Shown here: piece by piece, positions 41,444 to 62,621 of the stretch
How the letters are laid out: every line of letters begins with the position of its first letter
Position numbering within the stretch: position 1 is the first letter of the stretch
Assembly: GCA_041660185.1 (NCBI GenBank)
Contig: JBAZWU010000011.1
Location: 28,883-92,882 of the forward strand
DNA length: 64,000 bases
Origin: Elusimicrobiota bacterium
Lineage (GTDB): Bacteria; Elusimicrobiota; Elusimicrobia; 2-01-FULL-59-12
Direction of reading: 5' to 3'
The notes under the pieces: generated by a model
The model's input: only the letters and a program-made list of their open reading frames with translations
What the model was told of the DNA's origin: nothing
Database searches by the model: none
Position numbers and translations under genes: made by a program

Positions 41444-42921
41444 GGGTTGGCCCTCCGTTCGCGCACCCAGCGCAGCGCCACAATGTAAATGATGATGCTC
41501 TGGAGAATGGAACCAAAGGATGGCGCCAACGCCGTCTCGATATTAATCAGGCTGGTGAGAATAACGGCAAAGATGGCGATGCCGCCTTCGCCGGCGTTCT
41601 CATGATTAAACAGACGTTCCATCGTGGCATAGACCATACCCAGAATCCCCATGATGAACAGCACCCCCAGCGCTCCAAAATTGACGTAGCTTTCAACCAG
41701 GTGCGGCATGCCGATGGAGGTTGTCCCGATGCTGGCCGGGTCCTGTAAGCCGTAGGCCACACCAAAAAATTCGTTCGCCACCTGGGCATTCGGCTTCTTG
41801 GGCCAGATGGCCCGCGGGATTAAGGTGTAAATAAAATAGTCGTACGTTTTCCCTAATTGGAACGGAACATGGCGCGGCGTCATGGTCAACACATGGCCGA
41901 ACAGATGAATACAGTCCGTCCGCTGGATGGAACTTCGGGTACTCGATTGAACGCTCCGGCGGCCGTGCAGCAGGTCATTCCAACTGGTCACAGACAGAGT
42001 CGACCAGATCGCGATGCGGTCAAAGATACTGGTACTGGCCATCCCCTGTTTCCAGACCATATTCCGGTATTCCCCTTTTATCGGCTGGATAAAAGCGAAG
42101 AAAAGGACACCGATCATCGCAAAGTGCCAGGGGAACTTCTTCCGTGCCATCCAGTTAACAGACGTCACGATCAGGATCGGATCCAATAGATTTCGCACGT
42201 TGCCCATCGCCATTCCCAGCATGACCAGGATGGCGAAGATGACGACATAAGCCAGCCGCCCCCACCACCGCAGATTTCCCTTCAGAAAGTACCAGTACAA
42301 CAGGCCAAAACCGAGCAGCGACAATTTAATCATGAGACCGTACACGGCAAACAGGCGCGGCGGAATGACGACGCGTTCAGTCAGGCCAAGCCACAAGAGC
42401 GCGCTGCCGGTGATCCCCATCACGGTGGCGAGCGGCTGCGCCCGGACCGCCTCAAGTGTCAGGCGTACCTTAGGGACCAGAAGATTCAGTATGGAAAAAC
42501 GGAAGAACCAGAAACCGCACTCCAGCGCGATGATTCCCGCAAGCGTCAGCCGCAACGCCCTCTCGGTATATCGCGCGGGGACGATCAGGATCCCCCCTCC
42601 CCAGGAGGATTCGACCAAGGGTTCAGCATAGAAGGCGGGCAGGGCGTAACTGGCCGCATAAACCAGACAGATAATCGGGAACACCGGCACGCCCGGCTGA
42701 CGTTTGGCCAGATGAATGACGCTCGGCAAAAGACAAACCAGCACGACCAGATAGGCCAACCCCTGCTGCACGATCGAGACGTCCGGCCGCGTCACGTAAC
42801 GGAGGATCGGGATTAAAATCAAACTCAACAGAAAATAGCCGAACCAGACCTGGAACGCCCGGCCCTCGATGGGCCGCTGGGGCAGGCGGCTAAAACGGAT
42901 GTTGGTCACGGCATTATTCAC
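41440..42921 (-). CDS. polytopic membrane protein, O-antigen/EPS polymerase-like (Wzy-type) candidate
   Basis: 493 aa with more than 10 TM segments and a larger loop. It sits in the glycan locus between a GT and an amidotransferase. Assigned by context only. Confidence 0.45.
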   Translation of the reverse strand: MNNAVTNIRFSRLPQRPIEGRAFQVWFGYFLLSLILIPILRYVTRPDVSIVQQGLAYLVVLVCLLPSVIHLAKRQPGVPVFPIICLVYAASYALPAFYAEPLVESSWGGGILIVPARYTERALRLTLAGIIALECGFWFFRFSILNLLVPKVRLTLEAVRAQPLATVMGITGSALLWLGLTERVVIPPRLFAVYGLMIKLSLLGFGLLYWYFLKGNLRWWGRLAYVVIFAILVMLGMAMGNVRNLLDPILIVTSVNWMARKKFPWHFAMIGVLFFAFIQPIKGEYRNMVWKQGMASTSIFDRIAIWSTLSVTSWNDLLHGRRSVQSSTRSSIQRTDCIHLFGHVLTMTPRHVPFQLGKTYDYFIYTLIPRAIWPKKPNAQVANEFFGVAYGLQDPASIGTTSIGMPHLVESYVNFGALGVLFIMGILGMVYATMERLFNHENAGEGGIAIFAVILTSLINIETALAPSFGSILQSIIIYIVALRWVRERRANP

Positions 42922-45900
42922 AACACTTCTTTCCTTCCGTCCAGAATGGTTTCAAGACGCTGACGAAAACGCTCAACGGAAAACGTTTGTTCCAAGTGTT
43001 CCCGGCCCGCTTCTCCGAACCGGCTGGCCAGTGCCGCGTCTTTCAACAACAACACCAGAGCCGCGACCAGGGACGATCCCTGGCGGGGTTCCACGAGCAG
43101 CCCGGTCACATCATGAACAACCACTTCCGGAACACCACCGGCCCGCGCGCCCACACAGGGCTTGCCATGCGACATCGCTTCCAGAAAAACGATCCCGAAT
43201 CCTTCGCCTTCGCTCGGCAGGGCGAACACATCGCAGGCCTCGTAATAGGATGGAAGATCGGCTCCGGATACACGGCCGGCAAATATAACCTGTTGATTAA
43301 CTCCACAGCGCCGGGCCAAGGCTTCCAGACGGGAACGGTCAGGACCGTCGCCGACCACCACCAGAAAAGCCGCTGGGACGTCCCGCCGGACATCCGAAAG
43401 ACGTTCGATCATCCAGTCGATATTTTTGTAATGTTCCGCATCCGACAGCCGGGAAACAGTCAGAATCATCGGGCCCTCGGGAAGAGACAACTCCCGCCGT
43501 GTTTTCATGACCACGCGGTTGTTAAAAGCAGGATCGATCGTATCCGGAAAAACATCCCCCTGCTCCGGCGATAGCCCATTGCGCGAGAGCATCTGATCGA
43601 GCGTATACCGGCTGACCGCCAGAATCCGTGACATCTTTCGCAAACCCAGACGGCGCAAAAGCGGCAGCTTCTGCCAGACATCTATTCCATGAGCGATCGC
43701 ATAGGACTGGCTGTTCTTTTTTTGCATCCAGACGAGCGGCGAGAAATGCGCATGGCCAAAGAACGCACCGTCCGCTTTTCGTAAGGAACAAACCGCCTGT
43801 TTGAAGAACCTGAGCCGGCTTCCTCCAAAAGAACGCACGTCGGCACCGGCCAGCCGCCGGGCGGTCGGGGCATCATGCAAGACCAGAAACTGCAGCGCCC
43901 ATCCTCGCTCTTTGGCGATGGCGCGCAAGGCCGCCACCAAAGCTCGATTGAAGGTCGTAATACCGCCCAGCGCTCCAAAGAGATCCGTCAGCAAGACAAC
44001 CCATTGCGGTTTGGGGACAAATCGAAAGGTCCTGAAGTCGTCATTCCCCGCGGCCACTGGCGGGGAATCCAAAATTGTCGTACGGCATTGCTGGATCCCC
44101 GGCCAGTTACCGCCGGGGATGACGTCATTTGATCCGCCATAAAATCGAGCCACAATCACCGTGGCCCAGGCGCGGGACCAGTGCAGGCGGCCGGCGCGAA
44201 CCCCGGCCCAGATGGCTTGCACCGCTTTCCGTTCCAGCGGCGTATGCTCCAGCGCCATGGCTTCGAAATCATCCGCTTTTTGACGGAACCACTCGCCGAA
44301 AGGAAACGTGAAACCTTGCTTCGGGCGATCCCACACCTCCCGCGGAAACTCCGGGCCCATCGCTTCGACCAGAAGCCCTTTGGACTGGCTGGACCGCCGG
44401 ACGTCCGGCGGCAGGCGCAGGATTTCCTCAACCAGACGATGGTCTAGAAACGGCACACGCAGCTCCAGCGAATGGGCCATGCTCATCACATCGCTGTCTT
44501 TCAGCAACTGGTTCTGGAGATAGTGATCGAACTCCAAAAGTCGCAGGCGTTCTTCCTCCGGGAAGCGCTTGAGGACGTCGACCCCTTCAGGAACCCAGCG
44601 CGCGCGTTCGGTATCGCGTACGCTTACACCGAGAAGCCCGGCGATGCGTTCCGGCGGAAAAAGAGCTCGGAAAAGACGATACGGAGAGGCCGGATCCATA
44701 TCCCTCAGACACCAGAGCTTGTCCGCAACACCGGGATGGGACGGACGGCTCAGGGATTCCACCAGGCTCAGCAAAGGACCCCGCACACCCGGCGGCACGC
44801 ACGAAATCCCACGCACAGCAGCGCCGATCCACCGGGCGTGATGGAGATGGCGGTATCCCGAAAACAGCTCGTCCCCCCCCAGTCCGGAGAGGACCACTTT
44901 GAGTCCGGCCTCGTGCGCGGCTTTGGACACGACATAGGTATTGATGCCGTCGAGTGTGGGCTGGTCCATCGCCGCCAGCATCCGGGGCAGTTCGTCTTCA
45001 AACGCCTGCCGGCGCACCCGGATTTCCCGGTGGTCTGTGCCGTACTGGCGCGCCACCAGGCGCGCGTAACGCCCCTCATCGTAGGCGGGTTCATCGAAGA
45101 GGACCGACAACGTCGTGACATGCCCCGGCTGAAGACGGCTGGCCAGCGCCGTCAGTGAAGAGGAATCAATGCCTCCGCTGAGGAAAATTCCAAGCGGGAC
45201 ATCGCTGATCAAGTGCCCTTGAACCGCGTCCAGCAGCTGCCGGCGTGTTTCTTCCACGGCTTCCAGACGGGTGACGGGCCGGACGGGTTGATCCAAAACT
45301 CGAGCCAGGTCCCAGTAGTTTGTGGGTTCCACCGGACCGCGGCCCAACGACAGATAATGTCCGGCTGGAAGACTCCAGACCTTTTGAACGGTGGTTAGAG
45401 GAGCAGGGACCGATCCAAGCTCCAAAAATCGCAGGAGGCTCTCGGCGTTTAGCCGGTCGGGGATAAGCCCGCTGGCTTGCATGGCCCGCACCTCGGAGGC
45501 AAAAAGAATTTTCTCGTGGTCTTGATAGTAGTAAAGCGGTTTAATGCCGAAACGGTCACGGGCCAGAAACAGGCGCGGGCCGGAGCGAGCCGACAGATCC
45601 AAGAGCGCGAAAGCGAACATTCCCCGCAGGTGTTCCAGAAGCCCTTCCATCCCCCACGCTTCATATCCGTGCACCAGGACCTCGGTATCGGTGCGCGAAA
45701 CGAAACGATGGCCCGCGGTTTCCAGTTCCCGGCGCAGATCCTGAAAATTGTAGATTTCCCCGTTGAAAACAACCTGAACGGTCTGGTCTTCATTGGCCAT
45801 CGGTTGGCGGCCGGCGGAGGAGGTGTCCAGAATGGAGAGACGGCGGTGGCCCAGGAGCGCCTGCGGATGGCGGAATAACCCCTGATCGTCAGGGCCGCGG

Positions 45901-45992
45901 TGAAGCTGTGCATCCAGCATCCGCTCGACGCCCTGAATCTCCGGCGGCGCTACAACTCCCTGGGTGCGAAAGAGGCCAGCGATGCCGCACAT
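42918..45992 (-). CDS. fusion protein: asparagine synthetase (glutamine-hydrolysing, AsnB/WbpS-like amidotransferase) + GT4 glycosyltransferase
   Basis: The N-terminus 'MCGIAGLFRTQGV' is a class-II GATase Cys2. 'FLSGGIDSS' is a PP-loop. The C-terminal ~380 aa is 'RFVPKPQWVVLLTDLFGALGGITTF...EGFGIVFLEAMSHGKPCVGARAGGVPEVV' (GT4). The inter-domain linker is encoded by a hairpin repeat. Confidence 0.8.
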   Translation of the reverse strand: MCGIAGLFRTQGVVAPPEIQGVERMLDAQLHRGPDDQGLFRHPQALLGHRRLSILDTSSAGRQPMANEDQTVQVVFNGEIYNFQDLRRELETAGHRFVSRTDTEVLVHGYEAWGMEGLLEHLRGMFAFALLDLSARSGPRLFLARDRFGIKPLYYYQDHEKILFASEVRAMQASGLIPDRLNAESLLRFLELGSVPAPLTTVQKVWSLPAGHYLSLGRGPVEPTNYWDLARVLDQPVRPVTRLEAVEETRRQLLDAVQGHLISDVPLGIFLSGGIDSSSLTALASRLQPGHVTTLSVLFDEPAYDEGRYARLVARQYGTDHREIRVRRQAFEDELPRMLAAMDQPTLDGINTYVVSKAAHEAGLKVVLSGLGGDELFSGYRHLHHARWIGAAVRGISCVPPGVRGPLLSLVESLSRPSHPGVADKLWCLRDMDPASPYRLFRALFPPERIAGLLGVSVRDTERARWVPEGVDVLKRFPEEERLRLLEFDHYLQNQLLKDSDVMSMAHSLELRVPFLDHRLVEEILRLPPDVRRSSQSKGLLVEAMGPEFPREVWDRPKQGFTFPFGEWFRQKADDFEAMALEHTPLERKAVQAIWAGVRAGRLHWSRAWATVIVARFYGGSNDVIPGGNWPGIQQCRTTILDSPPVAAGNDDFRTFRFVPKPQWVVLLTDLFGALGGITTFNRALVAALRAIAKERGWALQFLVLHDAPTARRLAGADVRSFGGSRLRFFKQAVCSLRKADGAFFGHAHFSPLVWMQKKNSQSYAIAHGIDVWQKLPLLRRLGLRKMSRILAVSRYTLDQMLSRNGLSPEQGDVFPDTIDPAFNNRVVMKTRRELSLPEGPMILTVSRLSDAEHYKNIDWMIERLSDVRRDVPAAFLVVVGDGPDRSRLEALARRCGVNQQVIFAGRVSGADLPSYYEACDVFALPSEGEGFGIVFLEAMSHGKPCVGARAGGVPEVVVHDVTGLLVEPRQGSSLVAALVLLLKDAALASRFGEAGREHLEQTFSVERFRQRLETILDGRKEVL
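44037..44127. repeat. double-hairpin repeat (CGTCATTCCCCGCGG family), copy 3, located in-frame inside the AsnB-GT4 fusion as the interdomain linker
   Basis: 'gtcattccccgcggccactggcggggaatcc...ccccggccagttaccgccggggatgacg'. It is translated (minus strand) as '...NDVIPGGNWPGIQQCRTTILDSPPVAAGNDD'. Confidence 0.75.
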
Positions 45993-49234: not shown

Positions 49235-49347
49235 TTTGACTGGTTCTCCCCTCTTAACGGCCTAGGGGAAGTCTAAGGGGTGCTTTGGGTTTTCGCAAGG
49301 TAAATTTTTCGCAGGAAACCACTAAATCCGCGGGGATTTGAAGTATA

Positions 49348-49436: not shown

Positions 49437-49452
49437 CAGAGTTGAGTTATTC

Positions 49453-52166: not shown

Positions 52167-52209
52167 AAATGAGACTTGGGTAGTTTAGCACAACATAAAA
52201 AACTTTGCT

Positions 52210-53367
52210 TTGATGTCTTTGGCTATGAAATCCCCTCACAAACCGGCGTTCGAGCTTCAACTCCTATGCAAACTCCTGGCTTTGCGGCCAAGCCAGGAGG
52301 AATGTCTTTCAGACCTCCGCGCACCAGGTTTTTGCTGGGATCTATTCCTTCAGTTGGCGGAGTACCACGGGGTGATCGGATTTCTCTACGAGGCCCTGAC
52401 CGAAACCGGCCTGGCCCGGGAAGTTCCACCCAAGCTCCTGGAAGCGCTGCGGCATTCCACTCTGGTTCTCCTGGAAGAGCACCTGCAGCACAGGAGCGCG
52501 ATCCGGAAAACGCTGGAAACCCTGAACGCGGCCGGGTTGGAATTTATCGTTATTAAAGGGTGGTCACACGCCGAATCACTTCATGGGAACCCCTGCGCCC
52601 GTCCCATCACGGACCTGGACCTTCTCGTACACGACACGAAGGCGGCTCAAGCCCTGCTGAAACAACAGAGACTGCCGGACCCATCGATCGTAGACTGGCA
52701 TATCTATCCCACAAACACGTCGGATCTGCCGTCCCGCATGCGGTGCCTGCAGCTCGACATCCAGACGCTCTGGGCGGATTCGCGCCTCGCCACGATCACA
52801 GACACGCCGGCGCGCGTTCTTTCTCCGGCTGACCAGGTCATCGCCCTGGTGATCGACTTCACGATTTCGCATGGGTTCGGGAGGCTACTCCTTTTAAAGG
52901 AGATCCTGCTTCTGGCTGAAAAAGTCGGATGGGATGCGCTGGTGAAGAGGGCTCAACTATTCCAGGCTGACATTTTGCTGTACTTGACCCTCCGCATGGG
53001 AGAGGAACTTCTGCGATTCCCGGTTCCCCTCGATATTTTAAAAATCTTAGGGACTCGCTTAAGGCAAGAAGAACACTGGCTGGAAAAACGGCTGATTCAA
53101 AATCCGCTTTTTACCCCGGCCCGGTATTTCTGTATTCCGATTCTCCTGCCTTCCTGGGCCGATCGCCTGAGTTTTGCCAAAGAACTGCTCTGGCCTCCCC
53201 CCTATTGGTTCGAGCTCCGCAGCGAAAAACCGTCTCTCTGGCGCCACCTCATCCATGACGCGACGCTTATCGGCAAGGCATGCGCCATTTTATGGAACGT
53301 CAGGGGACGTAGTTGCAACTTTGCAAAAGGTGCCGGAAAAAATCCTTTTTTCCCCAAGACCGGGTAA
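52210..53367 (+). CDS. uncharacterised nucleotidyltransferase family protein (PF14907/NTP_transf_5-like), RiPP-cluster accessory type
   Basis: 'LNAAGLEFIVIKGWSHAESLHGNPCARPITDLDLLVHDTKAAQALLKQQ' matches the IKG...R..DIDLLV...D signature of this family. Confidence 0.65.
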   Translation: MMSLAMKSPHKPAFELQLLCKLLALRPSQEECLSDLRAPGFCWDLFLQLAEYHGVIGFLYEALTETGLAREVPPKLLEALRHSTLVLLEEHLQHRSAIRKTLETLNAAGLEFIVIKGWSHAESLHGNPCARPITDLDLLVHDTKAAQALLKQQRLPDPSIVDWHIYPTNTSDLPSRMRCLQLDIQTLWADSRLATITDTPARVLSPADQVIALVIDFTISHGFGRLLLLKEILLLAEKVGWDALVKRAQLFQADILLYLTLRMGEELLRFPVPLDILKILGTRLRQEEHWLEKRLIQNPLFTPARYFCIPILLPSWADRLSFAKELLWPPPYWFELRSEKPSLWRHLIHDATLIGKACAILWNVRGRSCNFAKGAGKNPFFPKTG

Positions 53368-53423
53368 AACAAGAAATATAGGCCATTTCCTGTCTCGTTG
53401 TGCAAAGTTGCAACTACGTCCCC
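53303..53423. repeat. REP pair: forward 23-bp REP (53303-53325) and inverted copy (53401-53423) with 75-bp spacer
   Basis: Exact matches to GGGGACGTAGTTGCAACTTTGCA and its reverse complement. They sit between the nucleotidyltransferase and ABC ATPase genes. Confidence 0.85.
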
Positions 53424-53446
53424 TGACGTTTTATATACTCAAACGT

Positions 53447-54190
53447 GTGACTTGTTCCATCGACGTACGGGGTGTTTCGAAATCGTTTTTCCCGCGGCTC
53501 TCTTTATTAAAACCCTGGCAGCCGAGGCCCCCCGTCCGCGCGCTCAATCACGTGAACCTCCGGGTGGAAACAGGAACGGTTTTCGCCCTGCTGGGCCCGA
53601 ATGGTTCCGGCAAAACGACCCTCCTCAAAATCATCAGCACGCTTCTGATGCCGGATGCCGGGACGCTTCGCGTGCTGGGTCACGTCCTGCCGGGGCAGGA
53701 GGAACGCGTCAAAACGCGAATCAGTTTCGCCATGGGAGACGAGCGAAGTTTCTACTGGCGCCTGACCGCCCGGCAGAACTTGATGTTTTTTGCTGCGCTC
53801 TATGATCTTTCCCCCCGGCAATCCGAACAAAAGATCGCTGAACTGGGTGACGTGTTCAGCCTGAAAGACTACCTTGACCGCCCCTACGAAGAACTCTCAT
53901 CCGGGATCCGGCAGCGCCTGGCGATCGCGCGATCCTTTCTGAACGACGCGGCCCTCCTGCTGGCCGATGAACCCACCCGCAGCCTCGATGCGGCCGCCAG
54001 AAACGCGCTTCACGGACTTCTTCAAAAACTCGTGCGGGAACACGGAAAAACGATTCTCTTCACAACGCATAATTTTGAGGAAGCCCGACGGGTGGCGGAC
54101 ACGGTAGGGATTTTGAATCAGGGCCGGCTTTGTTACTCCGGAAAATGGAAAGACGGCCTGGAGAGTTACCTCAATGCCCCCGCTTCGTAA
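53447..54190 (+). CDS. ABC transporter ATP-binding protein
   Basis: 'LLGPNGSGKTTLLKII' is Walker A, 'LSSGIRQRLAIARSF' the signature, 'LLLADEPTRSLD' Walker B. A GTG start at 53447 is chosen downstream of the REP; the listed ORF starts earlier inside repeat DNA. Confidence 0.85.
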   Translation: MTCSIDVRGVSKSFFPRLSLLKPWQPRPPVRALNHVNLRVETGTVFALLGPNGSGKTTLLKIISTLLMPDAGTLRVLGHVLPGQEERVKTRISFAMGDERSFYWRLTARQNLMFFAALYDLSPRQSEQKIAELGDVFSLKDYLDRPYEELSSGIRQRLAIARSFLNDAALLLADEPTRSLDAAARNALHGLLQKLVREHGKTILFTTHNFEEARRVADTVGILNQGRLCYSGKWKDGLESYLNAPAS

Positions 54191-54989
54191 ACTCTGGGCT
54201 TTTTCCCTCCGGGACTGGCAGCTCGCCCAGACGTATCGCTTTACTTTTTTGTTTGAGGTGGTCCGCACGCTGATCTTGCTGCTCTCGTTTTATTTCATCG
54301 GCAAATTGGTCCGGAGCAGCGGTGTTCACCCATCCCTGGCTGTATACGGAGGCGATTACTTTCGCTTCGTCCTTTTGGGCATCGTGTTCAGCGGCTTCAT
54401 GTCCACCGCTCTGGGCAGCGTGCGGCAGACGATTGAATTTGAACGGGGGCATGGGACATTGGAAGCCATTTTACTGACCCCCACTCCCCTGATCACGCTC
54501 GTGATCAACAAAACCCTGTGGGATCTCGGCATGGTCACAGCCAAGGCCGTCCTGTATCTCCTGGCAGGAGTTTACTTTTTTCGAGTGGATCTCTCGCACG
54601 TTTATTGGACCAGCACGCTGGTGGCCATCGCTTTGACAGTCAGCACCTTTTTTGGTTTAGGGCTGATCTCCGCCGGTATTCATTTACTCATCCGGGAAGA
54701 CAGCCCTTTGGACCTGATTTTGGAAGGAGCCTCGCGCTTCCTGGGAGGCGTTTATTTCCCGGTGGCGGTTCTTCCCGCGCCTCTTCTCGCGCTGTCCCGC
54801 TGGGTGCCGCTCACCTATGCGCTCGACGCGATCCGAAAATCCATGATTCTTGGAGCTTCGCTTCAAACCATCCGGATGGAACTACTGGTGCTGGCAGGGT
54901 GTTCGATCGTTCTGGTTCCGATCGGCGTGATCTGTTTTCAGAGCGCTTTCAAGACCGCCCGACGCAGGGGAATTCTCAGCTTCGAGTAG
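54174..54989 (+). CDS. ABC-2 type transporter permease
   Basis: 271 aa, 6 TM. Overlaps the ATPase stop. The ABC-2 family topology is typical. Confidence 0.75.
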   Translation: MPPLRKLWAFSLRDWQLAQTYRFTFLFEVVRTLILLLSFYFIGKLVRSSGVHPSLAVYGGDYFRFVLLGIVFSGFMSTALGSVRQTIEFERGHGTLEAILLTPTPLITLVINKTLWDLGMVTAKAVLYLLAGVYFFRVDLSHVYWTSTLVAIALTVSTFFGLGLISAGIHLLIREDSPLDLILEGASRFLGGVYFPVAVLPAPLLALSRWVPLTYALDAIRKSMILGASLQTIRMELLVLAGCSIVLVPIGVICFQSAFKTARRRGILSFE

Positions 54990-55745
54990 GGTTTTACAAA
55001 GAAAGGCCATCGGCGCTGAAGGTTCCCCAGCCTGCTGGAAACCCAGGGACCGGTAAAGTCGGAGGGCAGCTTGATTATCCGATTCCACCGTTAAACAAAG
55101 TTCTCTGACCCCTTGTTGGCGTGCCGTCCGTATCAGCTCCCCTAACAACAAAGTCGCGATTCCGCCGCCGCGGACCCAAGCGCGGACAAGCAGGTCTTTG
55201 ATGTTTTCCTTTTGATTCGGCTTGACGACGAGAAAAACATAACCGGCTTTCCAAGAACCGATAAAGGCCTGAAAAACAAAGGCGCCCTCTTCTTCCATCC
55301 GATTAATCCGGACCCGCGAAGCCAAATAAACCCTGAACAACACACGGTATAAATGGAAAGACTGGACCCAGGACAAAACCCGGATTCCCGCCATTTTCAC
55401 TTGTCGCTTCATCCAGGAAGGCCCGTATCGAATGAACAGAAAAAGGAAATACCGTCTCCGAAGATCTTTTTCAAGGAAAATTCGGCTTCCCCGTTTGACC
55501 ATTTCCAAGCGACCGATCAATTGATCTTCGCGGATCCATTCGATCGCTAGCGGAAGCTCATCTCCTGCTACTCCGAAATAATTTGGCCCAGCCGACAATC
55601 GCCTGATGCACCTCAACCGGTGAGCCACCGGGTTATCGTGTTCCGTCTGGCGATAAAGCAGGATGTCTCCAATTTTGAGGGTGGTTGATGATGAGAAGGC
55701 CCGGACAAAAAGCTCATCGCCCGGGCGAAGGAAGGGCTGCATACT
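54882..55745 (-). CDS. fusion: S24/S26-type (signal-peptidase/LexA-like) serine peptidase domain + GNAT N-acetyltransferase domain
   Basis: The N-region 'GGSMQPFLRPGDELFVRA...IGDILLYRQ' matches the GDSMxPTL..GD box of Ser-Lys dyad peptidases. The C-region 'VRGGGIATLLLGELIRTARQQGVRELCLTVESDNQAALRLYRSLGF' is the GNAT acetyl-CoA binding motif. The start is placed at the internal Met; the ORF's first residues are REP-encoded. Confidence 0.55.
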   Translation of the reverse strand, partial: SMQPFLRPGDELFVRAFSSSTTLKIGDILLYRQTEHDNPVAHRLRCIRRLSAGPNYFGVAGDELPLAIEWIREDQLIGRLEMVKRGSRIFLEKDLRRRYFLFLFIRYGPSWMKRQVKMAGIRVLSWVQSFHLYRVLFRVYLASRVRINRMEEEGAFVFQAFIGSWKAGYVFLVVKPNQKENIKDLLVRAWVRGGGIATLLLGELIRTARQQGVRELCLTVESDNQAALRLYRSLGFQQAGEPSAPMAFLCKTLLEAENSPASGGLESALKTDHADRNQNDRTPCQHQ

Positions 55746-55785
55746 GCCACCCTCGGCCCGGCAGAAAAACGAGCCGGGAGCACTA

Positions 55786-55863
55786 GGGGACGTAGTTGCA
55801 ACTTTGCATAAGGTATTCATATGACACAAGATACCTTTGATGCAAAGTTGCAACTACGTCCCC
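55786..55863. repeat. REP pair: forward REP (55786-55808) and inverted copy (55841-55863) around a palindromic 32-bp spacer
   Basis: Exact 23-bp matches. The spacer 'taaggtattcatatgacacaagatacctttga' is itself an inverted repeat. Confidence 0.85.
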
Positions 55864-55887
55864 TGGCGGTCTTTCGCGACATCTCCG

Positions 55888-56091
55888 TCAGGACGTGGTG
55901 GCGCCGGAATCCCGGGCGGTTGTCACGCTTGCCCGCCGGCAACCGTTGGAGGTCCGACATCCCTTTGTTCCTCTGACAGACAAGCTGGTGCCGCTTCGTG
56001 TGCATGTGCTGAGAATGGCCTGCTCCCGGCGGAGCACAACTTGGGTGATTTGCGGGGACTGATACGGCTTTTTTTCAGTTACAGTCGTCAT
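55888..56091 (-). CDS. candidate RiPP precursor peptide (67 aa: leader MTTVTEKKPYQSPQITQVVLRREQAIL; Cys/Ser/Thr/Arg-rich core)
   Basis: The ATG starts immediately after the TAA of the upstream radical SAM gene. A strong SD 'AGAGGGAGAG' lies 5-14 nt upstream. My translation gives MTTVTEKKPYQSPQITQ... as listed. The core has 3 Cys and 18 Ser/Thr. Confidence 0.5.
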   Translation of the reverse strand: MTTVTEKKPYQSPQITQVVLRREQAILSTCTRSGTSLSVRGTKGCRTSNGCRRASVTTARDSGATTS

Positions 56092-57141
56092 TTAGCTCTC
56101 CCTCTGTGCGATAAACATCGCTTTTTTCTCCGCGACTTCCCGAAAATAGGGCATGCAAGGGGCATCAAATGCTTTTTGGTCCAACCAACCATCCATGCTT
56201 CCCCGATCGCAATGAAACGCGATCGGACAGGATGAGCACGCGTAGGCAGGGCCCGGCTTCTGCGCCGCGACAAACTTCACCAACGTTTGCCAGCCTTTTT
56301 CAACCGACCCCGCCGTCACATCATACGACGGATGATGGATGCAGACACAAAGATTCATCCGGCCATGAGGCGTCAAAGCGGCGTTGCTCTTGCCACAAAG
56401 ACAATCGAACAGTTTCCCGGCGGAACCGCATTTCCCCTCCAAGGATCCGCCGGCCTCTTGCATTGGCTTTCCGCTATTTTCACGCCATATCTCGAAAACC
56501 CTGGCAGGCGACAACCGGTACATCAAGGGTTCTTTTGAACCGTCCACTCTGGGATAGATGTCCGTGCCGATCCGATAGGGCAGTTGACGGGACCGGGCGA
56601 AGTCTTTCATGGGCTCCAGTTCGTGTTCATTCAGCGTCATCAAAACGAGTTTCAGCAGGATGGGGATATGCCTTTCTTTCAGCCAATCAACCCCCTCGAC
56701 AAAATGAGCGTAGGAACCGGGGATGCGCGTCACAGATTCATAACTGTCAGCCGTGGCGCCATAAACGGAAATTTCCACCAGATAAGGATCCAACTCCGCC
56801 ATCTGATCCGCCAGCGCCGGCGTGATCAGAGTGGCGTTCGTAGTGATCGTAATCACCATCCCAAGTGAGCGGGCATACCGCATAATCTCACAGGCATCCC
56901 GCCGGGTGAACACCTCTCCTCCGGTGAAACCGATCCACAGGCATCCCTGAGCCGCCATCTCATCTAACAGTCGGTAAACCTGTTCCGTGGTCAGTTCCTG
57001 TTTCGCTTCGTGGGTTGTGTTATAACAGTGCACGCAGCGCAGGTTGCAGCCGTACGTCAGCTCCACCGTGGCCTGAATCCACTGCGGACGGGCCTTGGCG
57101 TCCTCACTCAGCTGATCGATGAATTGATCAAACTCTTTCAT
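56092..57141 (-). CDS. radical SAM/SPASM domain peptide-modifying enzyme (rSAM-1)
   Basis: 'TYGCNLRCVHCY' is CxxxCxxC. The C-terminal Cys-rich SPASM region is 'CGSAGKLFDCLCGKS...CVCIHH...CSSCPIAFHCDRG'. The start is placed at 'MKEFDQ' (14-nt overlap with the kinase gene). Confidence 0.85.
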   Translation of the reverse strand: MKEFDQFIDQLSEDAKARPQWIQATVELTYGCNLRCVHCYNTTHEAKQELTTEQVYRLLDEMAAQGCLWIGFTGGEVFTRRDACEIMRYARSLGMVITITTNATLITPALADQMAELDPYLVEISVYGATADSYESVTRIPGSYAHFVEGVDWLKERHIPILLKLVLMTLNEHELEPMKDFARSRQLPYRIGTDIYPRVDGSKEPLMYRLSPARVFEIWRENSGKPMQEAGGSLEGKCGSAGKLFDCLCGKSNAALTPHGRMNLCVCIHHPSYDVTAGSVEKGWQTLVKFVAAQKPGPAYACSSCPIAFHCDRGSMDGWLDQKAFDAPCMPYFREVAEKKAMFIAQRES

Positions 57142-58012
57142 AAAGATAACGGACGATACGGTTGTCTTGAGTAAAGCGCAGTTCGCCGCTGGGAACATCC
57201 TTGACCAGGCGGGTCGCTGCCTCCACGAGCCGTGCCATGGCTTCCTGATTCCAAAGAGGCAAATACGCTTCCGTGAAAATCGATTTCAATACGGGCTGAG
57301 GCGGCCGCGGGAGAAACTGATTGTCCGTCGCCTGGACCAGAACTGAAAAACGCTTGAGAAGCGCTGCCCCCTTGGAAACCTGCCGAAGCTCGCCGTGCCA
57401 GGGCGTTCCCGCTACGTGCCAGTGTTTTCCCTCCCGCCAGAGAAGAATACGCTCGTCATTCAGCACCTGAGCGGAAGAATGTGTCCGGAAGAGCCTGGAA
57501 ATCGTGGTCTTGCCGGCGCCGGAGTGACCGATGAATGCCAGCCCCTTGCCCGACAGAGAAACCGCTGCCCCATGCAAAATCATCCCTTTCCTCCGAAGCG
57601 CCAGCCAGCCGGTCAGCCACCATTGGATCAAAGGCTCGGCCACATCTCCCAGGTACCACCCCTTCTGGCGAAGCCCGGGTGACCGGTACGTGAGCGGAAT
57701 CAGATGGAGATCGATTTGATCCCACTTCGGGGTGATGAAACACACCTGCCTGGGCAGAAAATGCATTTGTTCCAGAATTTCCAATCGCACTCTGCCCCTC
57801 TCCTGGTAGACGCGCCATTGATTGGGAAGCTCATAAAGGAAGCGGGGCTTCCCATGCGGCTTGGGCGCATCGGTCCGGACCTGGATGGTCACGGTCGGCG
57901 GGAGAGAATTTCTGTCTTCAAAGACACCGCAAAATTCATGCGGCCAATCATGCGGCGGGGTATCCGCGATAAATCGAATGACGGCAGGGCCGATTTTGAT
58001 AGTGAGCTTCAT
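57128..58012 (-). CDS. HPr kinase/phosphorylase C-terminal-domain-like protein (HprK-related kinase)
   Basis: 'GMILHGAAVSLSGKGLAFIGHSGAGKTT' is a P-loop in the HprK-C context. It overlaps the rSAM-2 stop (ATGA) and the rSAM-1 start. Confidence 0.7.
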   Translation of the reverse strand: MKLTIKIGPAVIRFIADTPPHDWPHEFCGVFEDRNSLPPTVTIQVRTDAPKPHGKPRFLYELPNQWRVYQERGRVRLEILEQMHFLPRQVCFITPKWDQIDLHLIPLTYRSPGLRQKGWYLGDVAEPLIQWWLTGWLALRRKGMILHGAAVSLSGKGLAFIGHSGAGKTTISRLFRTHSSAQVLNDERILLWREGKHWHVAGTPWHGELRQVSKGAALLKRFSVLVQATDNQFLPRPPQPVLKSIFTEAYLPLWNQEAMARLVEAATRLVKDVPSGELRFTQDNRIVRYLYERV

Positions 58013-59274
58013 GACGATGCCCCCTCACCCCTACCCTCCCCCTCAACAGGGGGAGGGAGCGTAAGATTTTTCGCGGATGTATCCCCTCTCCCTGCTGAGG
58101 GAGAGGGGCTGGGGGTGAAGGTCAAGATGCTGGCAGTTTGCCGAGCTTTCGCTACTTCACAGAAATAAGGGACCGGCGCTTCCATGGACCCTGCCTCATG
58201 GATCGCCATCACGGGATTTTTGTCGCAGAACAGATGGGAGGAACAACTCCGGCACGCCGACTCCCCGGTGTAGCGGGCCTGATTGATTTCCTCGGCTGAG
58301 CGCTGGAACGCCTCGGAAACAGGGATCGTTTTCAGATCATACGACGGCCAGGTGGTGAACGTGCAGGGGCGAAACACACCGTACGGACTGACCGTCAATT
58401 GATTGGTCCCGCATCCGCAGCGAAAGAGCCGGTCATCCGGGGGGGGACCCTCACCCCAACCCTCCCCCTCAACAGGGGGAGGGAGTATGAAATCTGCGGG
58501 GGATCCCCCCTCTCCCTGTTGAGGGAGAGGGCAAGCAGGACGACCGCTAGGTCGGACAGGCGCGGGTGAGGGTTTACACTCCTCTGCCACCTCCAGTTCA
58601 GCCACCTCGGCTCCAGATAACCGGTACTGCGTGGAGGAAAGGTCCCCGTTCAAACGCGGGTAAATCGTGGGATAGAGACTGAAATCCACCCCCAATCCTT
58701 CCACGTACGCTCTGATCTCGCCCAATTCCTGACGATTAACGGTCATGGCCTTGGTTTTGATCGCCACCGACAAACGCCGGTCCAGTAACCGGCGGATCCC
58801 TGCCTGAAAACACGCGTAGGAACCCGGCACCTGGGTCACCCGCTCAAAGGTCTCGGCACGAACGCCATGCAAACTCACCTCCAACTGAAAGGGAGGGTCC
58901 TTGGCGAGAAAATCCGCGATCTCGTCCGTGATCGTTGTCCCGTTGGTGAATAACGCGATCAGGAATCCTCTCTCCTTGGCCGCACGATATATATCCTTGA
59001 ATCGCGGATGAAGTACCGCTTCTCCTCCGGTGAGGGTAAGCCAGAGCACGCCGGCGGAGGCCAGGTCGTCAAGAATCCGGATCATTCCCGGCAGCGGCAA
59101 TTCCCGCGACAACGCCGTCGGGGTGTTAAAGGGGTCTGTAAAACAATGGACGCAATGGAGATTACATCGGTAAGTCAGTTCCAACTGTGCCTTGAGAGGA
59201 CTCCGATTTTCGACGCTCCGGGAAAAGACCCGGGCGCTGAACACACTGTACATTTCTTCTTGAAACTTGCTCAT
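58009..59274 (-). CDS. radical SAM/SPASM domain enzyme (rSAM-2) carrying in-frame repeat-encoded P/G/E-rich linker and C-terminal tail
   Basis: 'TYRCNLHCVHCF' is the rSAM motif. SPASM 'CGCGTN...CTFTT...CRSCSSHLFCDK'. The segment 'PLPQQGEGGSPADFILPPPVEGEGWGEGPPP' between the rSAM and SPASM domains and the tail 'LPPPVEGEGRGEGASS' are encoded by the palindromic repeats at 58447-58572 and 58021-58120. Confidence 0.8.
   Translation of the reverse strand: MSKFQEEMYSVFSARVFSRSVENRSPLKAQLELTYRCNLHCVHCFTDPFNTPTALSRELPLPGMIRILDDLASAGVLWLTLTGGEAVLHPRFKDIYRAAKERGFLIALFTNGTTITDEIADFLAKDPPFQLEVSLHGVRAETFERVTQVPGSYACFQAGIRRLLDRRLSVAIKTKAMTVNRQELGEIRAYVEGLGVDFSLYPTIYPRLNGDLSSTQYRLSGAEVAELEVAEECKPSPAPVRPSGRPACPLPQQGEGGSPADFILPPPVEGEGWGEGPPPDDRLFRCGCGTNQLTVSPYGVFRPCTFTTWPSYDLKTIPVSEAFQRSAEEINQARYTGESACRSCSSHLFCDKNPVMAIHEAGSMEAPVPYFCEVAKARQTASILTFTPSPSPSAGRGDTSAKNLTLPPPVEGEGRGEGASS
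58021..58120. repeat. P/G/E-coding palindromic 'GEG' repeat, copy C (overlapping rSAM-2 3' end / HprK-like start)
   Basis: 'cccctcacccctaccctccccctcaacagggggagggag...cccctctccctgctgagggagaggggctgggggtgaagg'. Confidence 0.8.
58447..58572. repeat. P/G/E-coding palindromic 'GEG' repeat, copy D (long variant), inserted in-frame inside rSAM-2
   Basis: 'ccctcaccccaaccctccccctcaacagggggagggag...cccccctctccctgttgagggagagggcaagcaggacgaccgctaggtcggacaggcgcgggtgaggg'. It shares its tail with copy A (26757-26886). Confidence 0.8.
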
Positions 59275-59397: not shown

Positions 59398-61575
59398 TTA
59401 AATGGTTTGGACAGCACCGATCGCCCGAAGTTCCGACAAATACGTCGCGACGTCCTGTTCGGCAACAGCGGAATCCACTGTAAATGCTTTTCCCAGCAAC
59501 GCTGTCAGTTCCCGGCCCGTACGCCGGCCGTCAATCTGTTCCCACAGGAAAGCGCCGACCTCATTCAACGTATAAAGAGATGGCTCCTGATTCGGCTGCC
59601 GGTTCGCGGGAACCAGAACCATCTCCCCCGCCACCCGGCGGGCCACCATCGTCGGGCACTTTTGAAACCGAAAATCCAGCTGTTCTGTTGAAGCCGCCAT
59701 GATCGTTCCTCCGCTTTTTTTCAGGTTCTGTATGATGCTGTTCCAGTTCTGTCGGGCGGCCGGCCACTCCGGGTCCAACTCCATCAAGCGCTCGTATTCC
59801 CGCAGGGCCGGTTCCCACTGTTTGAGAAATTCTTCCTTGTAAGCGGGCGTAGCATACAACGTTCGATAAGAGGGGTCCAGGGAAATCATCCGCTCCCAGG
59901 CTTCCCGGGCCGACGGGACATCGTTCCGCCCGAGGGCTTCGCAGACTTGCTCATAAACGCGCGCCGCCGAGCCGGCAGGCGGTTGATCCTCGACGAGAGC
60001 AGCGGGATCCAGCAGCGCGCGCTGAATGAGATCGCCGAAATATTTGTACCGCAGCGGCGTGTATCCTTTATTGACCGAGTACGAAAGGGTCACAAAGTCC
60101 GTCGGCAGCTCAACGGCCCGGAGACGCCGGAGAAAGTGACTCGGCTGCAGCCAGGGACCGGCGTAGTCGCTGTCAAAATACGGAAACAATCCAGTCCCGT
60201 CGATGTGGCGAGTCAGGAGATAATCCACATCGATGTCCAGGAGAACCGGTTTTATAAAGCGGGGCAGCGACTCCAGCCGGCACACCGTCAACGGGCATCC
60301 CATCAATAGGAGATGAATCCCTGTCTCGGAAACCCGTAAAGGGCCTGCCGAATCCGGTCTCGCATGAATCATTTCGTTAATCCATTGAATGAGTTTCTGC
60401 CGTTGGTCAGGGGTTTCCCAAAAACCATCAGGGATGACCCAATAAAGCTCGCGGATGAAGCCTTCCCGGATGGCTGGATAAAGGAAATTACCACTGTCCA
60501 TCGCTTTATGCGGAGGATGGTCATCGATCCAGAAAAAATCCAGATGACCGTCCAGATGAATCAGGGTTCGGCCCTGGACTCCAGCGTCTTTCCAGAGGGT
60601 GTAGGCCGTCTCATGATCTTCCATCAGATGGATCGACTTCGAAGGAATCGGATCAGCCGCCGCCAGGGATTTCTTTCGGGGGCAGGGAAAGCTCGGCAGC
60701 GCTTTGTAAAACCCTTCCAGAAAGGAGCCTCGTCTCAAGTCGTAGCTGGCCCGCCGGTTGTTGGAACACAGCTGAAGCTGCCCGTACGCATCGATGTGGA
60801 ATTTGTAGCGTCCCCCCTGACAGGGGAAGTCATCGGGGTATGTGGCGTGGCCGTCACGCTCCCGCTCCGCCCAGAGCTGAGGGTCCTGACGCTCGATGGC
60901 CGCCAGGTCTTTGTCGGACAACTGGAATCGCAGAGGGGCTCCACTGCCGGTCAGATCATCGAGCAGGTGTTCTCCAAACTGAAAAGACACGCCGGGACCG
61001 AAGTCGTCCACATAACGTTTGATCGCCAAAATCTCGTCCCGGTTCAGCGTCGTCCCCACTGTTTTCAACGTCACCGGGATCTGCCGTTCCATCAAAAGCC
61101 GAACCGCCTCCACATTCAGGGGACGTAGTTGCAACTTTGCACAAACAGCATCAGAGATCGCATGAAGGCTGATTTCCACCCGCACGGGAGGCATCCTGGC
61201 CCATTGATCGGCGATCTCGCGCGTGATGAGCGTTCCATTGGAGAAAACCGTAATGAGAAATCCAAAACGGTGAGCGGTTTCATAAATCTCCATGAAATCA
61301 GGCCGGCACAGCGGCTCCCCGCCGGTGAACGTGACTTCCAGGCAACCCGCGGCCTGGATCTCATGGAGAATGCGAAGGATGTCAGCGGTAGGAAGCTCCT
61401 GACGGATCCGCTCCGGCGTATTGAAACAATCCGTATAGCACATGGCACACGTCAGATTGCACCGGCAGGTGAGTTCCCACTGGCCGACCAAAGGAGCGCG
61501 ACCCTGGAGAGAACGGGCCAAGACTTGATCGCCGAAAACCTGCGATGAGCGGGTCGGGAAAGCGGGGATGGCCAT
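59398..61575 (-). CDS. multidomain protein: radical SAM (twitch/SPASM-like) domain + ~300-aa uncharacterised domain + TPR-like segment + C-terminal PqqD-like (RRE) domain (rSAM-3)
   Basis: 'LTCRCNLTCAMCY' is the rSAM cluster motif. The middle has a 'HLDGHLDFFWIDD' metal-site-like motif. The C-terminus 'LYTLNEVGAFLWEQIDGRRTGRELTALLGKAFTVDSAVAEQDVATYLSELRAIGAV' matches the PqqD fold pattern. The start is placed at 'MAIPAF'; the listed ORF starts within a REP. Confidence 0.75.
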   Translation of the reverse strand: MAIPAFPTRSSQVFGDQVLARSLQGRAPLVGQWELTCRCNLTCAMCYTDCFNTPERIRQELPTADILRILHEIQAAGCLEVTFTGGEPLCRPDFMEIYETAHRFGFLITVFSNGTLITREIADQWARMPPVRVEISLHAISDAVCAKLQLRPLNVEAVRLLMERQIPVTLKTVGTTLNRDEILAIKRYVDDFGPGVSFQFGEHLLDDLTGSGAPLRFQLSDKDLAAIERQDPQLWAERERDGHATYPDDFPCQGGRYKFHIDAYGQLQLCSNNRRASYDLRRGSFLEGFYKALPSFPCPRKKSLAAADPIPSKSIHLMEDHETAYTLWKDAGVQGRTLIHLDGHLDFFWIDDHPPHKAMDSGNFLYPAIREGFIRELYWVIPDGFWETPDQRQKLIQWINEMIHARPDSAGPLRVSETGIHLLLMGCPLTVCRLESLPRFIKPVLLDIDVDYLLTRHIDGTGLFPYFDSDYAGPWLQPSHFLRRLRAVELPTDFVTLSYSVNKGYTPLRYKYFGDLIQRALLDPAALVEDQPPAGSAARVYEQVCEALGRNDVPSAREAWERMISLDPSYRTLYATPAYKEEFLKQWEPALREYERLMELDPEWPAARQNWNSIIQNLKKSGGTIMAASTEQLDFRFQKCPTMVARRVAGEMVLVPANRQPNQEPSLYTLNEVGAFLWEQIDGRRTGRELTALLGKAFTVDSAVAEQDVATYLSELRAIGAVQTI
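61119..61141. repeat. single REP copy lying in-frame inside the rSAM-3 coding sequence (encodes ...AKLQLRPL...)
   Basis: Exact 23-bp 'ggggacgtagttgcaactttgca'. Protein length around it appears normal for the rSAM fold. Confidence 0.8.
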
Positions 61576-61592
61576 GCCGTTATCGTAGGACG

Positions 61593-62621
61593 TCAGGGGA
61601 CGTAGTTGCAACTTTGCATATTGAGTCTTTCCTTAAGCTCAAACCGATGGGCCAGGCGCTGACCTCGTTCAAATGCCCTGCTGGCGGTGCTCGTTGATAG
61701 AACGAGTTGCTTCCCCATCCCGGTGACAGATTGCTTAAACCAGACTACTCCGGCATATACCGCCATGGCCTTCGCATCTGACAGCGCGCGCCGCTGACCC
61801 GTTTCGGAAAAGTAATGGGGGTCTTCTCCGGTCAGATCGGCAATAAGATCCAATACCTTTTCAAAATTGATTGATTTTGGAATGGGCGTTTCATCACAAC
61901 CGTCTTTCGCCTTGCGCAGGGTTTCTTCCACAAAAGCACTGTCCCCCAGCAAACGTAGGTCGTACGCGTAGGCTTCACCGCTTCTGATGGCCTGCAGAGC
62001 AGGACCTCCCCCTCCCCAACTACGAATAAGTCCGCCTCCTTCTAACTGGTCCTGTCGTTTCTGACTCCAAGCCTCCATTACAAATAATTCGTAGTTTGCC
62101 CGCGCCTGGCGCAAAGTCGGGCCAAAACGTTCAAGAACTTTCCCGGCAACCTGCCAGGGCCTGTCTAAGGTACCCATCAGAGCCGAGTGGCTTGTCCAAG
62201 GATAGACAGCCAGTTCAGAAGGCGATCGGACAATTCCCGCGCGCACTGGGTTAAGAGCGATATAACGTATCAGCTCCAGAAAATAGGGATCCTCCTGACA
62301 GATGATGTCCTTGTATCGGTTTTGAAACAAATGACCGGCGCGCTGATAGCGCAGGTTAAATGAGACGGCATACCCAGTCAAAAGCTTTTGCATGACCCGA
62401 GAAATGCGCGTGGAAGCCGTCTGGAGCAACAGGTGCAGGTGATTAGGCATGAGCGCCCAGGCGTAACAGAGGGTTTTCGTTTCTTGGAGGATGCGACCTA
62501 ACCGGTCGGCGAATTCGGAGTAATCTCGATTTGATCTAAAAATAGAGCGTTTTTCAATTCCCCTCGCGATTACGTGATGAAAGAGTCCAGGGAAGTCGAT
62601 ACGAGGTAAACGTGGCATCAC
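61593..62621 (-). mobile_element. REP-associated tyrosine transposase (RAYT; IS200/IS605-family Y1 HUH transposase) with ~190-aa C-terminal extension, flanked by inverted REPs (61596-61618 and 62665-62687)
   Basis: 'MPRLPRIDFPGLFHHVIARGIEKRSIFRSNRDYSEFADRL...YAWALMPNHLHLLLQT' contains the HuH motif (HLH) and the Y1 architecture. The REP at its 3' end encodes the C-terminal '...MQSCNYVP'. An inverted REP with 1 mismatch lies 44 bp upstream of the start. Confidence 0.75.

Follow-up and report, generated by a model that had tools for sequence, protein, structure and literature searches.

A predicted S26B-type peptidase fused to a GNAT acetyltransferase in a radical SAM peptide cassette of an Elusimicrobiota bacterium

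On the minus strand of a 64,000-nt stretch of an Elusimicrobiota genome (hereafter the window, i.e., the whole stretch analysed), one open reading frame (ORF) joins a peptidase domain resembling the S26B signal peptidases to a GNAT acetyltransferase by way of a helical linker. We propose, with a probability of roughly 55%, that this gene, here called S26-GNAT, encodes a bifunctional maturation enzyme of a radical S-adenosylmethionine (rSAM) cassette similar to those producing ribosomally synthesized, post-translationally modified peptides (RiPPs). Members of the S26-GNAT family probably trim the peptide product of the neighbouring rSAM genes, and leader peptidase is the best-supported role for the S26 domain as judged from sequence. 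The gene is organized as follows:

54882..55853, minus strand: longest S26-GNAT ORF, at most 323 codons as the sequence now stands
55473..55772, minus strand: S26B-like (SEC11/SipW/archaeal-type) serine peptidase domain, with the Ser codon at 55743-55745 (G-G-S-M-Q-P), the His codon at 55620-55622 (V-A-H-R-L) and the GD-box Asp codon at 55560-55562
55320..55472, minus strand: helical linker (approximately residues 117-167 counted from ATG 55820), with a conserved Q...YR motif and no convincing transmembrane segment
54981..55319, minus strand: GNAT acetyltransferase core, with the acetyl-CoA box R-G-G-G-I-A at 55155-55172
54882..54980, minus strand: C-terminal tail of 33 residues plus stop, non-conserved and predicted disordered, the sole part that overlaps the neighbouring permease gene

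The translated ORF reads ...CRAEGG-S-M-QPFLRPGDELFV...GDILLY...VAHRL...GVAGDE..., continues into a GNAT-like C-terminal half with VRAWVRGGGIATLL, and ends at a TAG stop codon (54882-54884). Its peptidase motif is GGSMQPFLRPGD, in which the Ser codon is AGT; position 55745, the upper limit of the range given in the initial annotation, belongs to this Ser codon and not to a start codon.

The fusion of a peptidase to a GNAT domain, first proposed from this single sequence, is a true one, as the full-length architecture is common to more than 100 cluster representatives. Searched exhaustively with HMMER, a set of 1.84 billion cluster representatives contained 361 matching proteins at E<=1e-10, with both halves matched in >100 of the top 150 representatives and a typical length of 270-350 amino acids (aa); a word-indexed homologue search retrieved only the window's own protein (public record P0001) and one 29%-identical relative. 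The near-invariant columns of a 40-sequence alignment are G-x-S-M-x-P, G-D, G-D, H-R, D, G and R in the N-terminal domain, Q...Y-R in the linker, and R-x-G-I and Y...G-F in the GNAT domain. All members come from metagenomes or metagenome-assembled genomes (MAGs) of uncultured bacteria and are publicly named only “GNAT family N-acetyltransferase”, “signal peptidase I” or “RimI-like”. Literature searches on SynChlorMet/ScmC, PF14907, S24+GNAT RiPPs, and signal peptidase with rSAM and HPr kinase found no account of this fusion or of its cassette.

The S26 domain takes four forms: GNAT-fused, stand-alone (~150 aa), fused to both GNAT and the nucleotidyltransferase-like NTP_transf_5 (P0013, P0029 and P0094, 649-788 aa), and as the head of giant DUF11/Peptidase_C25 proteins. 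This last form was seen in Terriglobia MAGs (L013 9848-16975, L015 6718-13131 and L016 9893-16318), in which an S26-like domain heads ORFs of ~2100-2400 aa that include DUF11 repeats, end in a Peptidase_C25 (gingipain-like) domain and immediately follow PqqD, rSAM, precursor and ScmC. Elsewhere, one cluster carries two stand-alone S26-like copies (L028 5630-6142 and 10484-11005), and in another locus a short ORF with GCSMSPALRTGD (L001 327-566, plus strand) lies just upstream of the S26-GNAT gene and overlaps it.

The N-terminal domain is, from profile alignment and structural modelling, predicted to be a signal-peptidase-fold Ser/His enzyme of the endoplasmic reticulum (ER)/archaeal S26B type. 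A profile of 21 N-domain sequences matches human SEC11C (7p2q, E 1.6e-10) and SEC11A (7p2p, E 2.9e-10), with bacterial signal peptidase (SPase) I and LexA/UmuD far behind, and the peptidase motif recognized in the initial annotation is borne out by this alignment, which places SM-P on GSMEP, HR on IVHRV (SEC11A/C) and GD on KGDNN. Across 153 family sequences, the nucleophile position holds Ser in 135 and Cys in 4 (the 12 gaps are mostly proteins called from the following Met), and a Cys as the sole recurrent substitute for Ser is expected of a nucleophile. The general-base position is His in 149 of the 153, the next residue Arg in 150, and the GD-box Asp is found in 148. A second acidic residue, 6-7 positions after the GD box, is less constant (Glu in 87 and Asp in 10 sequences, otherwise variable), the window having D and E (GDELPLAIE). 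Of the Ser/Lys-dyad S24/S26 peptidase originally suggested, the signal-peptidase-like domain and its conserved Ser were thus retained, but not the Lys: a dyad of the LexA/UmuD (S24) or bacterial SPase I (S26A) kind was rejected, since the general base aligns to the SEC11 His, with the invariant Arg next to it.

The predicted fold agrees with this assignment. The AlphaFold model of the N-domain has a predicted local distance difference test score (pLDDT) of 90.4, and its top Foldseek matches in the PDB are SpsB, SEC11A (template modelling score 0.61, root mean square deviation 3.7 Å), SEC11C, SipA, lambda cI and UmuD'. A chance occurrence of the S-M-P box was rejected on the evidence of homologues, profile and fold alike. 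No N-terminal hydrophobic or transmembrane anchor was found in S26-GNAT (maximum 19-residue Kyte-Doolittle means mostly <1.6), and a membrane-anchored signal peptidase was rejected on this ground; the protein is probably soluble or peripherally attached, and probably cytoplasmic.

For the C-terminal half, the GNAT domain with its acetyl-CoA motif is confirmed by Pfam Acetyltransf_1 on residues 187-272 (46.7 bits against a cut-off of 20.7, E 4.5e-12) and by the RGGGIA box, of which R217 is kept in 140 and G220 in 137 of the 153 family sequences. The Acetyltransf_1 match begins at profile position 31, and the alpha1-alpha2 insert of a ~340-aa subfamily is missing in the short subfamily that includes the window's protein; in the model, the linker helices may substitute for this missing GNAT segment. 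The first of these helices are also present in the stand-alone S26 versions. A full-length AlphaFold2 model from the 40-sequence alignment (pLDDT 85.8, predicted template modelling score 0.73) has two confident domains, laid out as a beta-rich N-domain, helices 117-167 and the GNAT core, and Foldseek matches of the whole model are GNATs, among them RimI and NatD-type protein N-acetyltransferases.

The genes around S26-GNAT form a cassette, parts of which are interrupted by repetitive extragenic palindromic (REP) sequences:

52210..53367, plus strand: NTP_transf_5 (PF14907) nucleotidyltransferase-like protein, its 3' end running into a REP doublet
53174..54190, plus strand: ABC transporter ATPase, the true start probably past the REP doublet ending at 53424
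54174..54989, plus strand: ABC-2 permease, homologous to the permease of an Omnitrophota cassette
55888..56091, minus strand: precursor peptide gene, 67 aa, MTTVTEKKPYQSPQITQVVLRREQAILSTC...C...C...S
56092..57198, minus strand: rSAM/SPASM maturase
57128..58012, minus strand: ScmC-family HprK-like P-loop protein, 294 aa, with GHSGAGKTT and a precomputed Pfam match to PF27840
58009..59274, minus strand: second rSAM/SPASM maturase, 421 aa, with in-frame insertions of a second palindromic repeat family
59398..61611, minus strand: rSAM, long middle region and C-terminal PqqD (RiPP recognition element, RRE) in one ORF of 737 aa

The first three genes are convergent to the rSAM and S26-GNAT genes. 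In the 737-aa protein, the middle ~400 aa are without family matches apart from a weak TPR match; elsewhere PqqD is a separate protein of ~95 aa.

This gene set is conserved across loci as PqqD, rSAM/SPASM, precursor, ScmC (HprK-like), and S26 with or without GNAT and NTP_transf_5, followed by an ABC exporter. One Omnitrophota MAG, for example, has the order Poly_export, PqqD, rSAM, a 54-aa ORF, ScmC, S26-GNAT and NTP_transf_5, with convergent ABC permease and ATPase genes. The initial annotation had raised the question of whether homologues of the fusion co-occur with rSAM and HprK-like genes, and they do. A scan of GTDB species representatives with a tight subfamily alignment returned 37 loci, whose ORFs were searched with the window proteins: PqqD and rSAM/SPASM adjoin the S26 domain in essentially every S26-containing locus, ScmC is present in many, NTP_transf_5 and the ABC genes are found where the contig is long enough, and a conserved precursor peptide accompanies nearly every recovered locus. 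Besides the Omnitrophota locus, the recovered loci that share these neighbours number ~30 and belong to Nitrospirota, Desulfobacterales, Terriglobia, Aminicenantes and other groups. Among the recovered loci, GNAT-bearing S26 forms were seen only in cassettes with ScmC. The window's cassette encodes no other protease and its ABC system is without a C39 domain, which argues for the S26 domain as the leader peptidase.

The window's precursor aligns with the Omnitrophota 54-aa ORF (MMTKKTYQKPALSQVDLVPQEALLTGC...), and an iterated hidden Markov model (HMM) found 32-34 precursor-like ORFs in the recovered loci, with the pattern K-K-P-[YW]-x-x-P-x-L-x-x-h-x-L-x-x-E-E-A-V-L-x-x-C-K, at least two further Cys and a C-terminal Ser (nearly all of 32 aligned precursors), often as G-S. 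In the conserved CK motif, the window's precursor has Thr instead of Lys. This precursor is present in exactly one copy in the window (E 2.9e-16), has a good Shine-Dalgarno sequence, and its ATG abuts the TAA stop codon of the upstream rSAM gene as TAAATG; Pfam and NCBIfam hold no model for it. As candidate scissile bonds, neither a cut between L-x-x and C nor one directly after A-V-L cleanly fits the classical -3/-1 rules. In one bacterial MAG (L004 8066-9125), four precursor-like ORFs lie in tandem, with near-identical leaders and divergent or truncated cores.

Compared with known systems, S26-GNAT shares its N-domain fold and the SM-P, HR and GD boxes with the S26B signal peptidases (SEC11A/C, yeast Sec11, Bacillus SipW, archaeal SPase I), but it is without their membrane anchor and signal-peptidase-complex partners, is fused to GNAT, sits in an rSAM peptide cassette, scores below the curated cut-offs and conserves the second acidic residue only in part. 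Scoring too low, and having neither an anchor nor a Sec substrate, it cannot be placed in the curated signal peptidase I families. Another parallel is SodX, which matures nickel superoxide dismutase; this small S26 protease is soluble and cuts the N-terminal propeptide off a single dedicated substrate. It is a weak NCBIfam match (TIGR02754, E 0.0019) and, like S26-GNAT, lacks an anchor, but similarity is very low and SodX has no GNAT domain and an unrelated substrate and gene context.

Parallels to the cassette as a whole come from lasso peptides. Paeninodin-type clusters use a homologue of HPr kinase to phosphorylate the C-terminal Ser, the phosphate on this Ser receives hexoses from a nucleotidyltransferase in pseudomycoidin, this nucleotidyltransferase is fused in some lasso clusters to the B2 leader protease, and albusnodin has a Lys acetylated by a GNAT (PMC8498205). 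The paeninodin/pseudomycoidin set and the window's cassette both pair HprK-like and nucleotidyltransferase-like proteins (likened here by role) with a precursor ending in Ser, and both have a Y/W-x-x-P-x-L leader and a PqqD/RRE protein; in both kinds of cassette, the nucleotidyltransferase is fused to the protease in some members. In place of the lasso cyclase and the transglutaminase-type B2 protease, however, the window's cassette has rSAM/SPASM enzymes and an S26-type protease. No lasso cyclase (Asn-synthetase-like) and no B1 or B2 protein were found from 52 to 62 kb of the window; an Asn-synthase-glycosyltransferase (GT) fusion at 42918..45992 belongs to an exopolysaccharide (EPS) locus.

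The SynChlorMet (SCM) cassette ScmC/ScmD/ScmE/ScmF (TIGR04248-04251; PF27840) likewise has PqqD, rSAM/SPASM and ScmC-family HprK-like proteins in common with the window's cassette. All scores against the SCM equivalog models are far below cut-off (12.4 bits against 125 for TIGR04249, ~57-73 bits against 400 for TIGR04250/04251), the only SCM-related match in the window being that of the 294-aa protein to the broader family PF27840, and S26-GNAT, NTP_transf_5 and the precursor family are, as far as these models show, outside the described SCM set. Finally, the RiPP GNATs (microviridin MdnD, goadsporin GodH, albusnodin AlbT and HaaN) bring the GNAT fold and acetyl-CoA box into peptide maturation clusters, as is the case here, with a weak match of S26-GNAT to the HaaN model (NF041716, E 6e-4). 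Similarity to them is nonetheless at the level of the GNAT superfamily only, the S26-GNAT subfamily being without the alpha1-alpha2 segment, and to our knowledge none of these RiPP GNATs is fused to a protease.

Putting these elements together, we envision that PqqD would bind the leader through its KKP-Y/W-x-x-P-x-L motif, that the rSAM/SPASM enzymes would cross-link the Cys-containing core, and that the HprK-like ScmC and NTP_transf_5 would modify the near-invariant C-terminal Ser (cf. the paeninodin and pseudomycoidin enzymes). Close to the invariant E-E-A-V-L-x-x-C junction, the S26 domain would cut off the leader, the fused GNAT would then acylate an amine on the same substrate, with the newly freed N-terminus as the simplest candidate, and the ABC-2 system would export the product. 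The place given to the S26 domain follows from its fusions: NTP_transf_5 is sometimes fused to S26-GNAT, as the lasso nucleotidyltransferase is to the B2 protease. It is tempting to speculate further that an anchor-less, cytoplasmic SEC11-type homologue serves as the dedicated leader peptidase of a new and broad class of rSAM-cross-linked peptides with a modified C-terminal Ser, handing the cleaved peptide through its fused GNAT (and in some cases NTP_transf_5) to acylation or tailoring, perhaps in connection with EPS; we hold this wider picture only tentatively, but if true, it would make S26 a new leader-peptidase family in RiPP biosynthesis.

Whether the window's own copy conforms to this scheme depends on its 5' end, where the reading frame is split by a repeat:

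Candidate starts of the S26-GNAT ORF, minus strand: TTG 55853 (REP stem), ATG 55820 (spacer of the REP doublet) and ATG 55742 (public annotation)
55785..55864: REP doublet (REPIN-like) of 80 nt within the 5' coding region of S26-GNAT, made of two inverted 24-nt AGGGGACGTAGTTGCAACTTTGCA units and a 32-nt spacer
55817..55882, minus strand: presumed native start ATG 55882 and 21-codon mini-ORF MSRKTARGRSCNFASKVSCVI, the ATG lying 5 nt after the precursor stop codon

This doublet is a perfect palindrome with a predicted RNA hairpin of -60.5 kcal/mol (z = -10). It encodes the first 23 codons of the 54882..55853 ORF, and its upstream arm contains an in-frame stop. Excision of exactly 80 nt joins ATG 55882 in frame and gives a protein of 306 aa with a family-typical N-terminus (MSRKTASAPGSFFCRAEGGSMQPFL..., cf. 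MSAAPPASDIRRFRASGFSM in P0006), this REP-free reconstruction beginning MSRKTASAPGSFF; since its precise removal restores that ATG, the doublet appears to have been inserted six codons into the gene. The TGA of the mini-ORF (55817-55819) overlaps ATG 55820-55818 as ATGA, and a full-length, Ser-bearing enzyme in this genome would require initiation inside the repeat, most plausibly by termination-reinitiation at this ATGA (55817-55820), which might yield a 312-aa protein with the full peptidase domain. Translation of the catalytic Ser in this genome is therefore uncertain.

Public record P0001 (286 aa, “GNAT family N-acetyltransferase [Elusimicrobiota bacterium]”) starts at 55742, one codon past the catalytic Ser, so that the annotated protein is without its nucleophile. 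The same conserved Met of the S-M box was chosen as start in 8 of the 153 family representatives (P0001, P0012, P0013, P0030, P0106, P0107, P0123 and P0141), probably through a repeated mistake of gene callers by which public annotation loses sight of the peptidase domain. Scanning the surroundings of the gene for promoters and terminators gave nothing informative. A Logan contig from an independent assembly shows 100% identity to the window at 54032..58477 (4446 bp), REP repeat and permease overlap included; an assembly artefact is hence unlikely for either feature, although this contig may share the same reads.

Several observations weigh against S26-GNAT as a bifunctional maturation enzyme. 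As a single sequence, the peptidase half stays below cut-off both for Pfam Peptidase_S24 (E 0.013, 15.6 bits against 23.3) and for its best NCBIfam match, sigpep_I_arch (TIGR02228; E 2.3e-9, 37.3 bits against 51.85), with bacterial SPase I, SipW and the Ni-SOD maturation protease as weaker NCBIfam matches; the HMM searches proposed at the outset therefore support the GNAT half outright and the peptidase half clearly only at the family level. Many cassettes keep an S26 domain without GNAT, so that acetylation would be an accessory step. The presumed cleavage junction breaks the classical -3/-1 small-residue rule, His or Asn often preceding the Cys. In this genome, the best Shine-Dalgarno-like sequence (GAGG) stands 8 nt before ATG 55742, the sole starts upstream of it sit within the -60 kcal/mol hairpin, and repeats have also entered other genes of the cluster, which would fit a cluster in decay. 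Given this Shine-Dalgarno site and these hairpin-buried starts, the peptidase may be dead here.

This leads to the first of two alternatives that we regard as real possibilities, each short of an even chance, namely that translation starts at ATG 55742 and the product, deprived of its Ser nucleophile and first beta-strand, works only as a GNAT or belongs to a recent pseudogene. Beyond the features just listed, the region from the doublet to the Met after the Ser contains no in-frame ATG, GTG or TTG, the upstream REP arm carries its in-frame stop, and the near-identity of the REP copies suggests recent spread. Against this, the ATGA overlap between ATG 55820 and the stop codon of the mini-ORF headed by the native ATG is a classical arrangement for translational coupling, in which translating ribosomes would melt the hairpin, and the ORF is open throughout the repeat. 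Gene callers are, moreover, biased to that Met, judging from the representatives annotated from it, and the GAGG is partly a by-product of conserved Gly codons.

The second of these alternatives leaves the S26 domain as leader peptidase and moves the GNAT to another acceptor, either a side chain or a group put on the C-terminal Ser by ScmC and NTP_transf_5, e.g., an amino sugar. The restriction of GNAT forms to ScmC-bearing cassettes and the direct fusion of GNAT to NTP_transf_5 in the triple fusions both point in this direction, as do the hexoses on the phosphoserine of pseudomycoidin and the Lys acetylated by the albusnodin GNAT (PMC8498205). The Lys of the CK motif is however not available in the window's precursor, the sugar moiety is hypothetical, and fusion to a protease is most simply understood as action on the cleavage product. 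For the acceptor taken by itself, the new N-terminus is the simplest reading, and a side chain or appended group is equally possible, since the GNAT is optional, is confined to cassettes with ScmC and in some cases carries an additional fusion to NTP_transf_5.

EPS genes (Poly_export, GNVR/tyrosine kinase, Wzy, GT4 and the Asn-synthase-GT fusion) adjoin the cassette in the window (38000-52200) and in loci L002/L003, L007 and L023, and a fused major facilitator superfamily (MFS)/spermidine synthase gene also adjoins it in the window. A link between the cassette peptide and EPS production is possible. That the cassette is an accessory module of EPS biosynthesis, with the modified peptide as primer, anchor or regulator, appears improbable to us: such flanking genes are its support, but most recovered loci have no EPS genes within 10 kb, and the cassette has its own ABC exporter. 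More improbable still is that the S26-like domain does something other than leader removal (TraF-like transpeptidation or cyclisation, LexA-like self-cleavage, or peptide binding), for although S26C TraF cyclises pilin, the LexA clan self-cleaves and the junction residues depart from signal-peptidase rules, the near-invariant Ser, His, Arg and Asp with Cys as sole recurrent Ser substitute speak for catalysis, the conserved Ser is the last residue of the precursor and leaves no C-terminal tail to remove, the window's cassette contains no further leader protease, and the S26 domain sits where the B2 protease sits in lasso-peptide fusions.

At its other end, the S26-GNAT ORF runs into the convergent permease gene:

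54882..54989, both strands: convergent overlap of the S26-GNAT ORF and the ABC-2 permease gene, 108 nt with both stop codons included

The overlap of ~100 bp described in the initial annotation is real, but what was seen there as an unusual feature involves only the unconserved tail. At the permease C-terminus, homology to the Omnitrophota counterpart extends to residue 268 of 271, so the plus-strand coding is genuine; on the minus strand, the permease stop codon falls at the conserved end of the GNAT (...CKTL). Beyond it, the 33-residue tail compares with a family median of 1 and a 90th percentile of 20 residues (family alignment), and the last ~30 residues of the AlphaFold2 model have a pLDDT <55. 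The overlap is best seen as the ORF running on along the antisense strand of the permease gene; a functional role was rejected, as the tail is predicted disordered, unconserved and longer than in >90% of relatives and the GNAT core stops at the permease stop codon.

The repeats extend well beyond S26-GNAT. The 20-nt REP core (GACGTAGTTGCAACTTTGCA) has nine matches in the window (eight exact and one with a single mismatch) against 0.01 expected, at 38582-38659, 53302-53424, 55785-55864, 61118-61141, 61595-61618 and 62661-62684, with inverted doublets of variable spacing. A REP-associated tyrosine transposase (RAYT)-like ORF (61593..62621, minus strand; NF047646 E 3e-17, Pfam Y1_Tnp) is flanked on both sides by single REP copies, and the near-identity of the copies suggests recent activity. 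The unit at 61118-61141 lies in frame within the rSAM domain of the 737-aa rSAM-PqqD protein (...HAISDAV-CAKLQLRPL-NVEAV...), where it takes the place of a segment kept in two paralogous rSAM proteins; this enzyme may be impaired as a result. The 123-nt doublet at 53302-53424 spans the NTP_transf_5/ABC ATPase junction, and repeat sequence accounts for the C-terminal 22 residues encoded by the NTP_transf_5 ORF as well as for what looks like an N-terminal extension in the ATPase ORF. A second palindromic family (CCCTCCCCCTCAACAGGGGGAGGG-like doublets; 26769-26844, 49360-49424, 58034-58107, 58460-58531 and 59329-59383) has nine matches against 0 expected, and two of its doublets are in frame in the 421-aa rSAM/SPASM gene (SPASM region and C-terminus), giving PPPVEGEG[WR]GEG insertions.

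Leader removal is the least understood step in many radical SAM peptide pathways, and we know of no S26-type enzyme assigned to it in such pathways, nor did the literature searched contain one. S26-GNAT represents an uncharacterised, phylogenetically broad and unnamed family whose sequences predict leader removal in RiPP biosynthesis by a new type of peptidase, coupled to acylation. It provides a testable leader-peptidase candidate, whose precursor family is defined and whose compact cassette occurs in Elusimicrobiota, Omnitrophota, Nitrospirota, Desulfobacterota and Acidobacteriota. The protease nature of the family is masked by public labels and by starts placed one codon past the catalytic Ser. 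In the window, the REP insertion illustrates that a gene split by a mobile repeat may still be open to translation. More broadly, the protease-GNAT(-nucleotidyltransferase) fusions suggest a trim-then-cap assembly line, which could serve peptide engineering.

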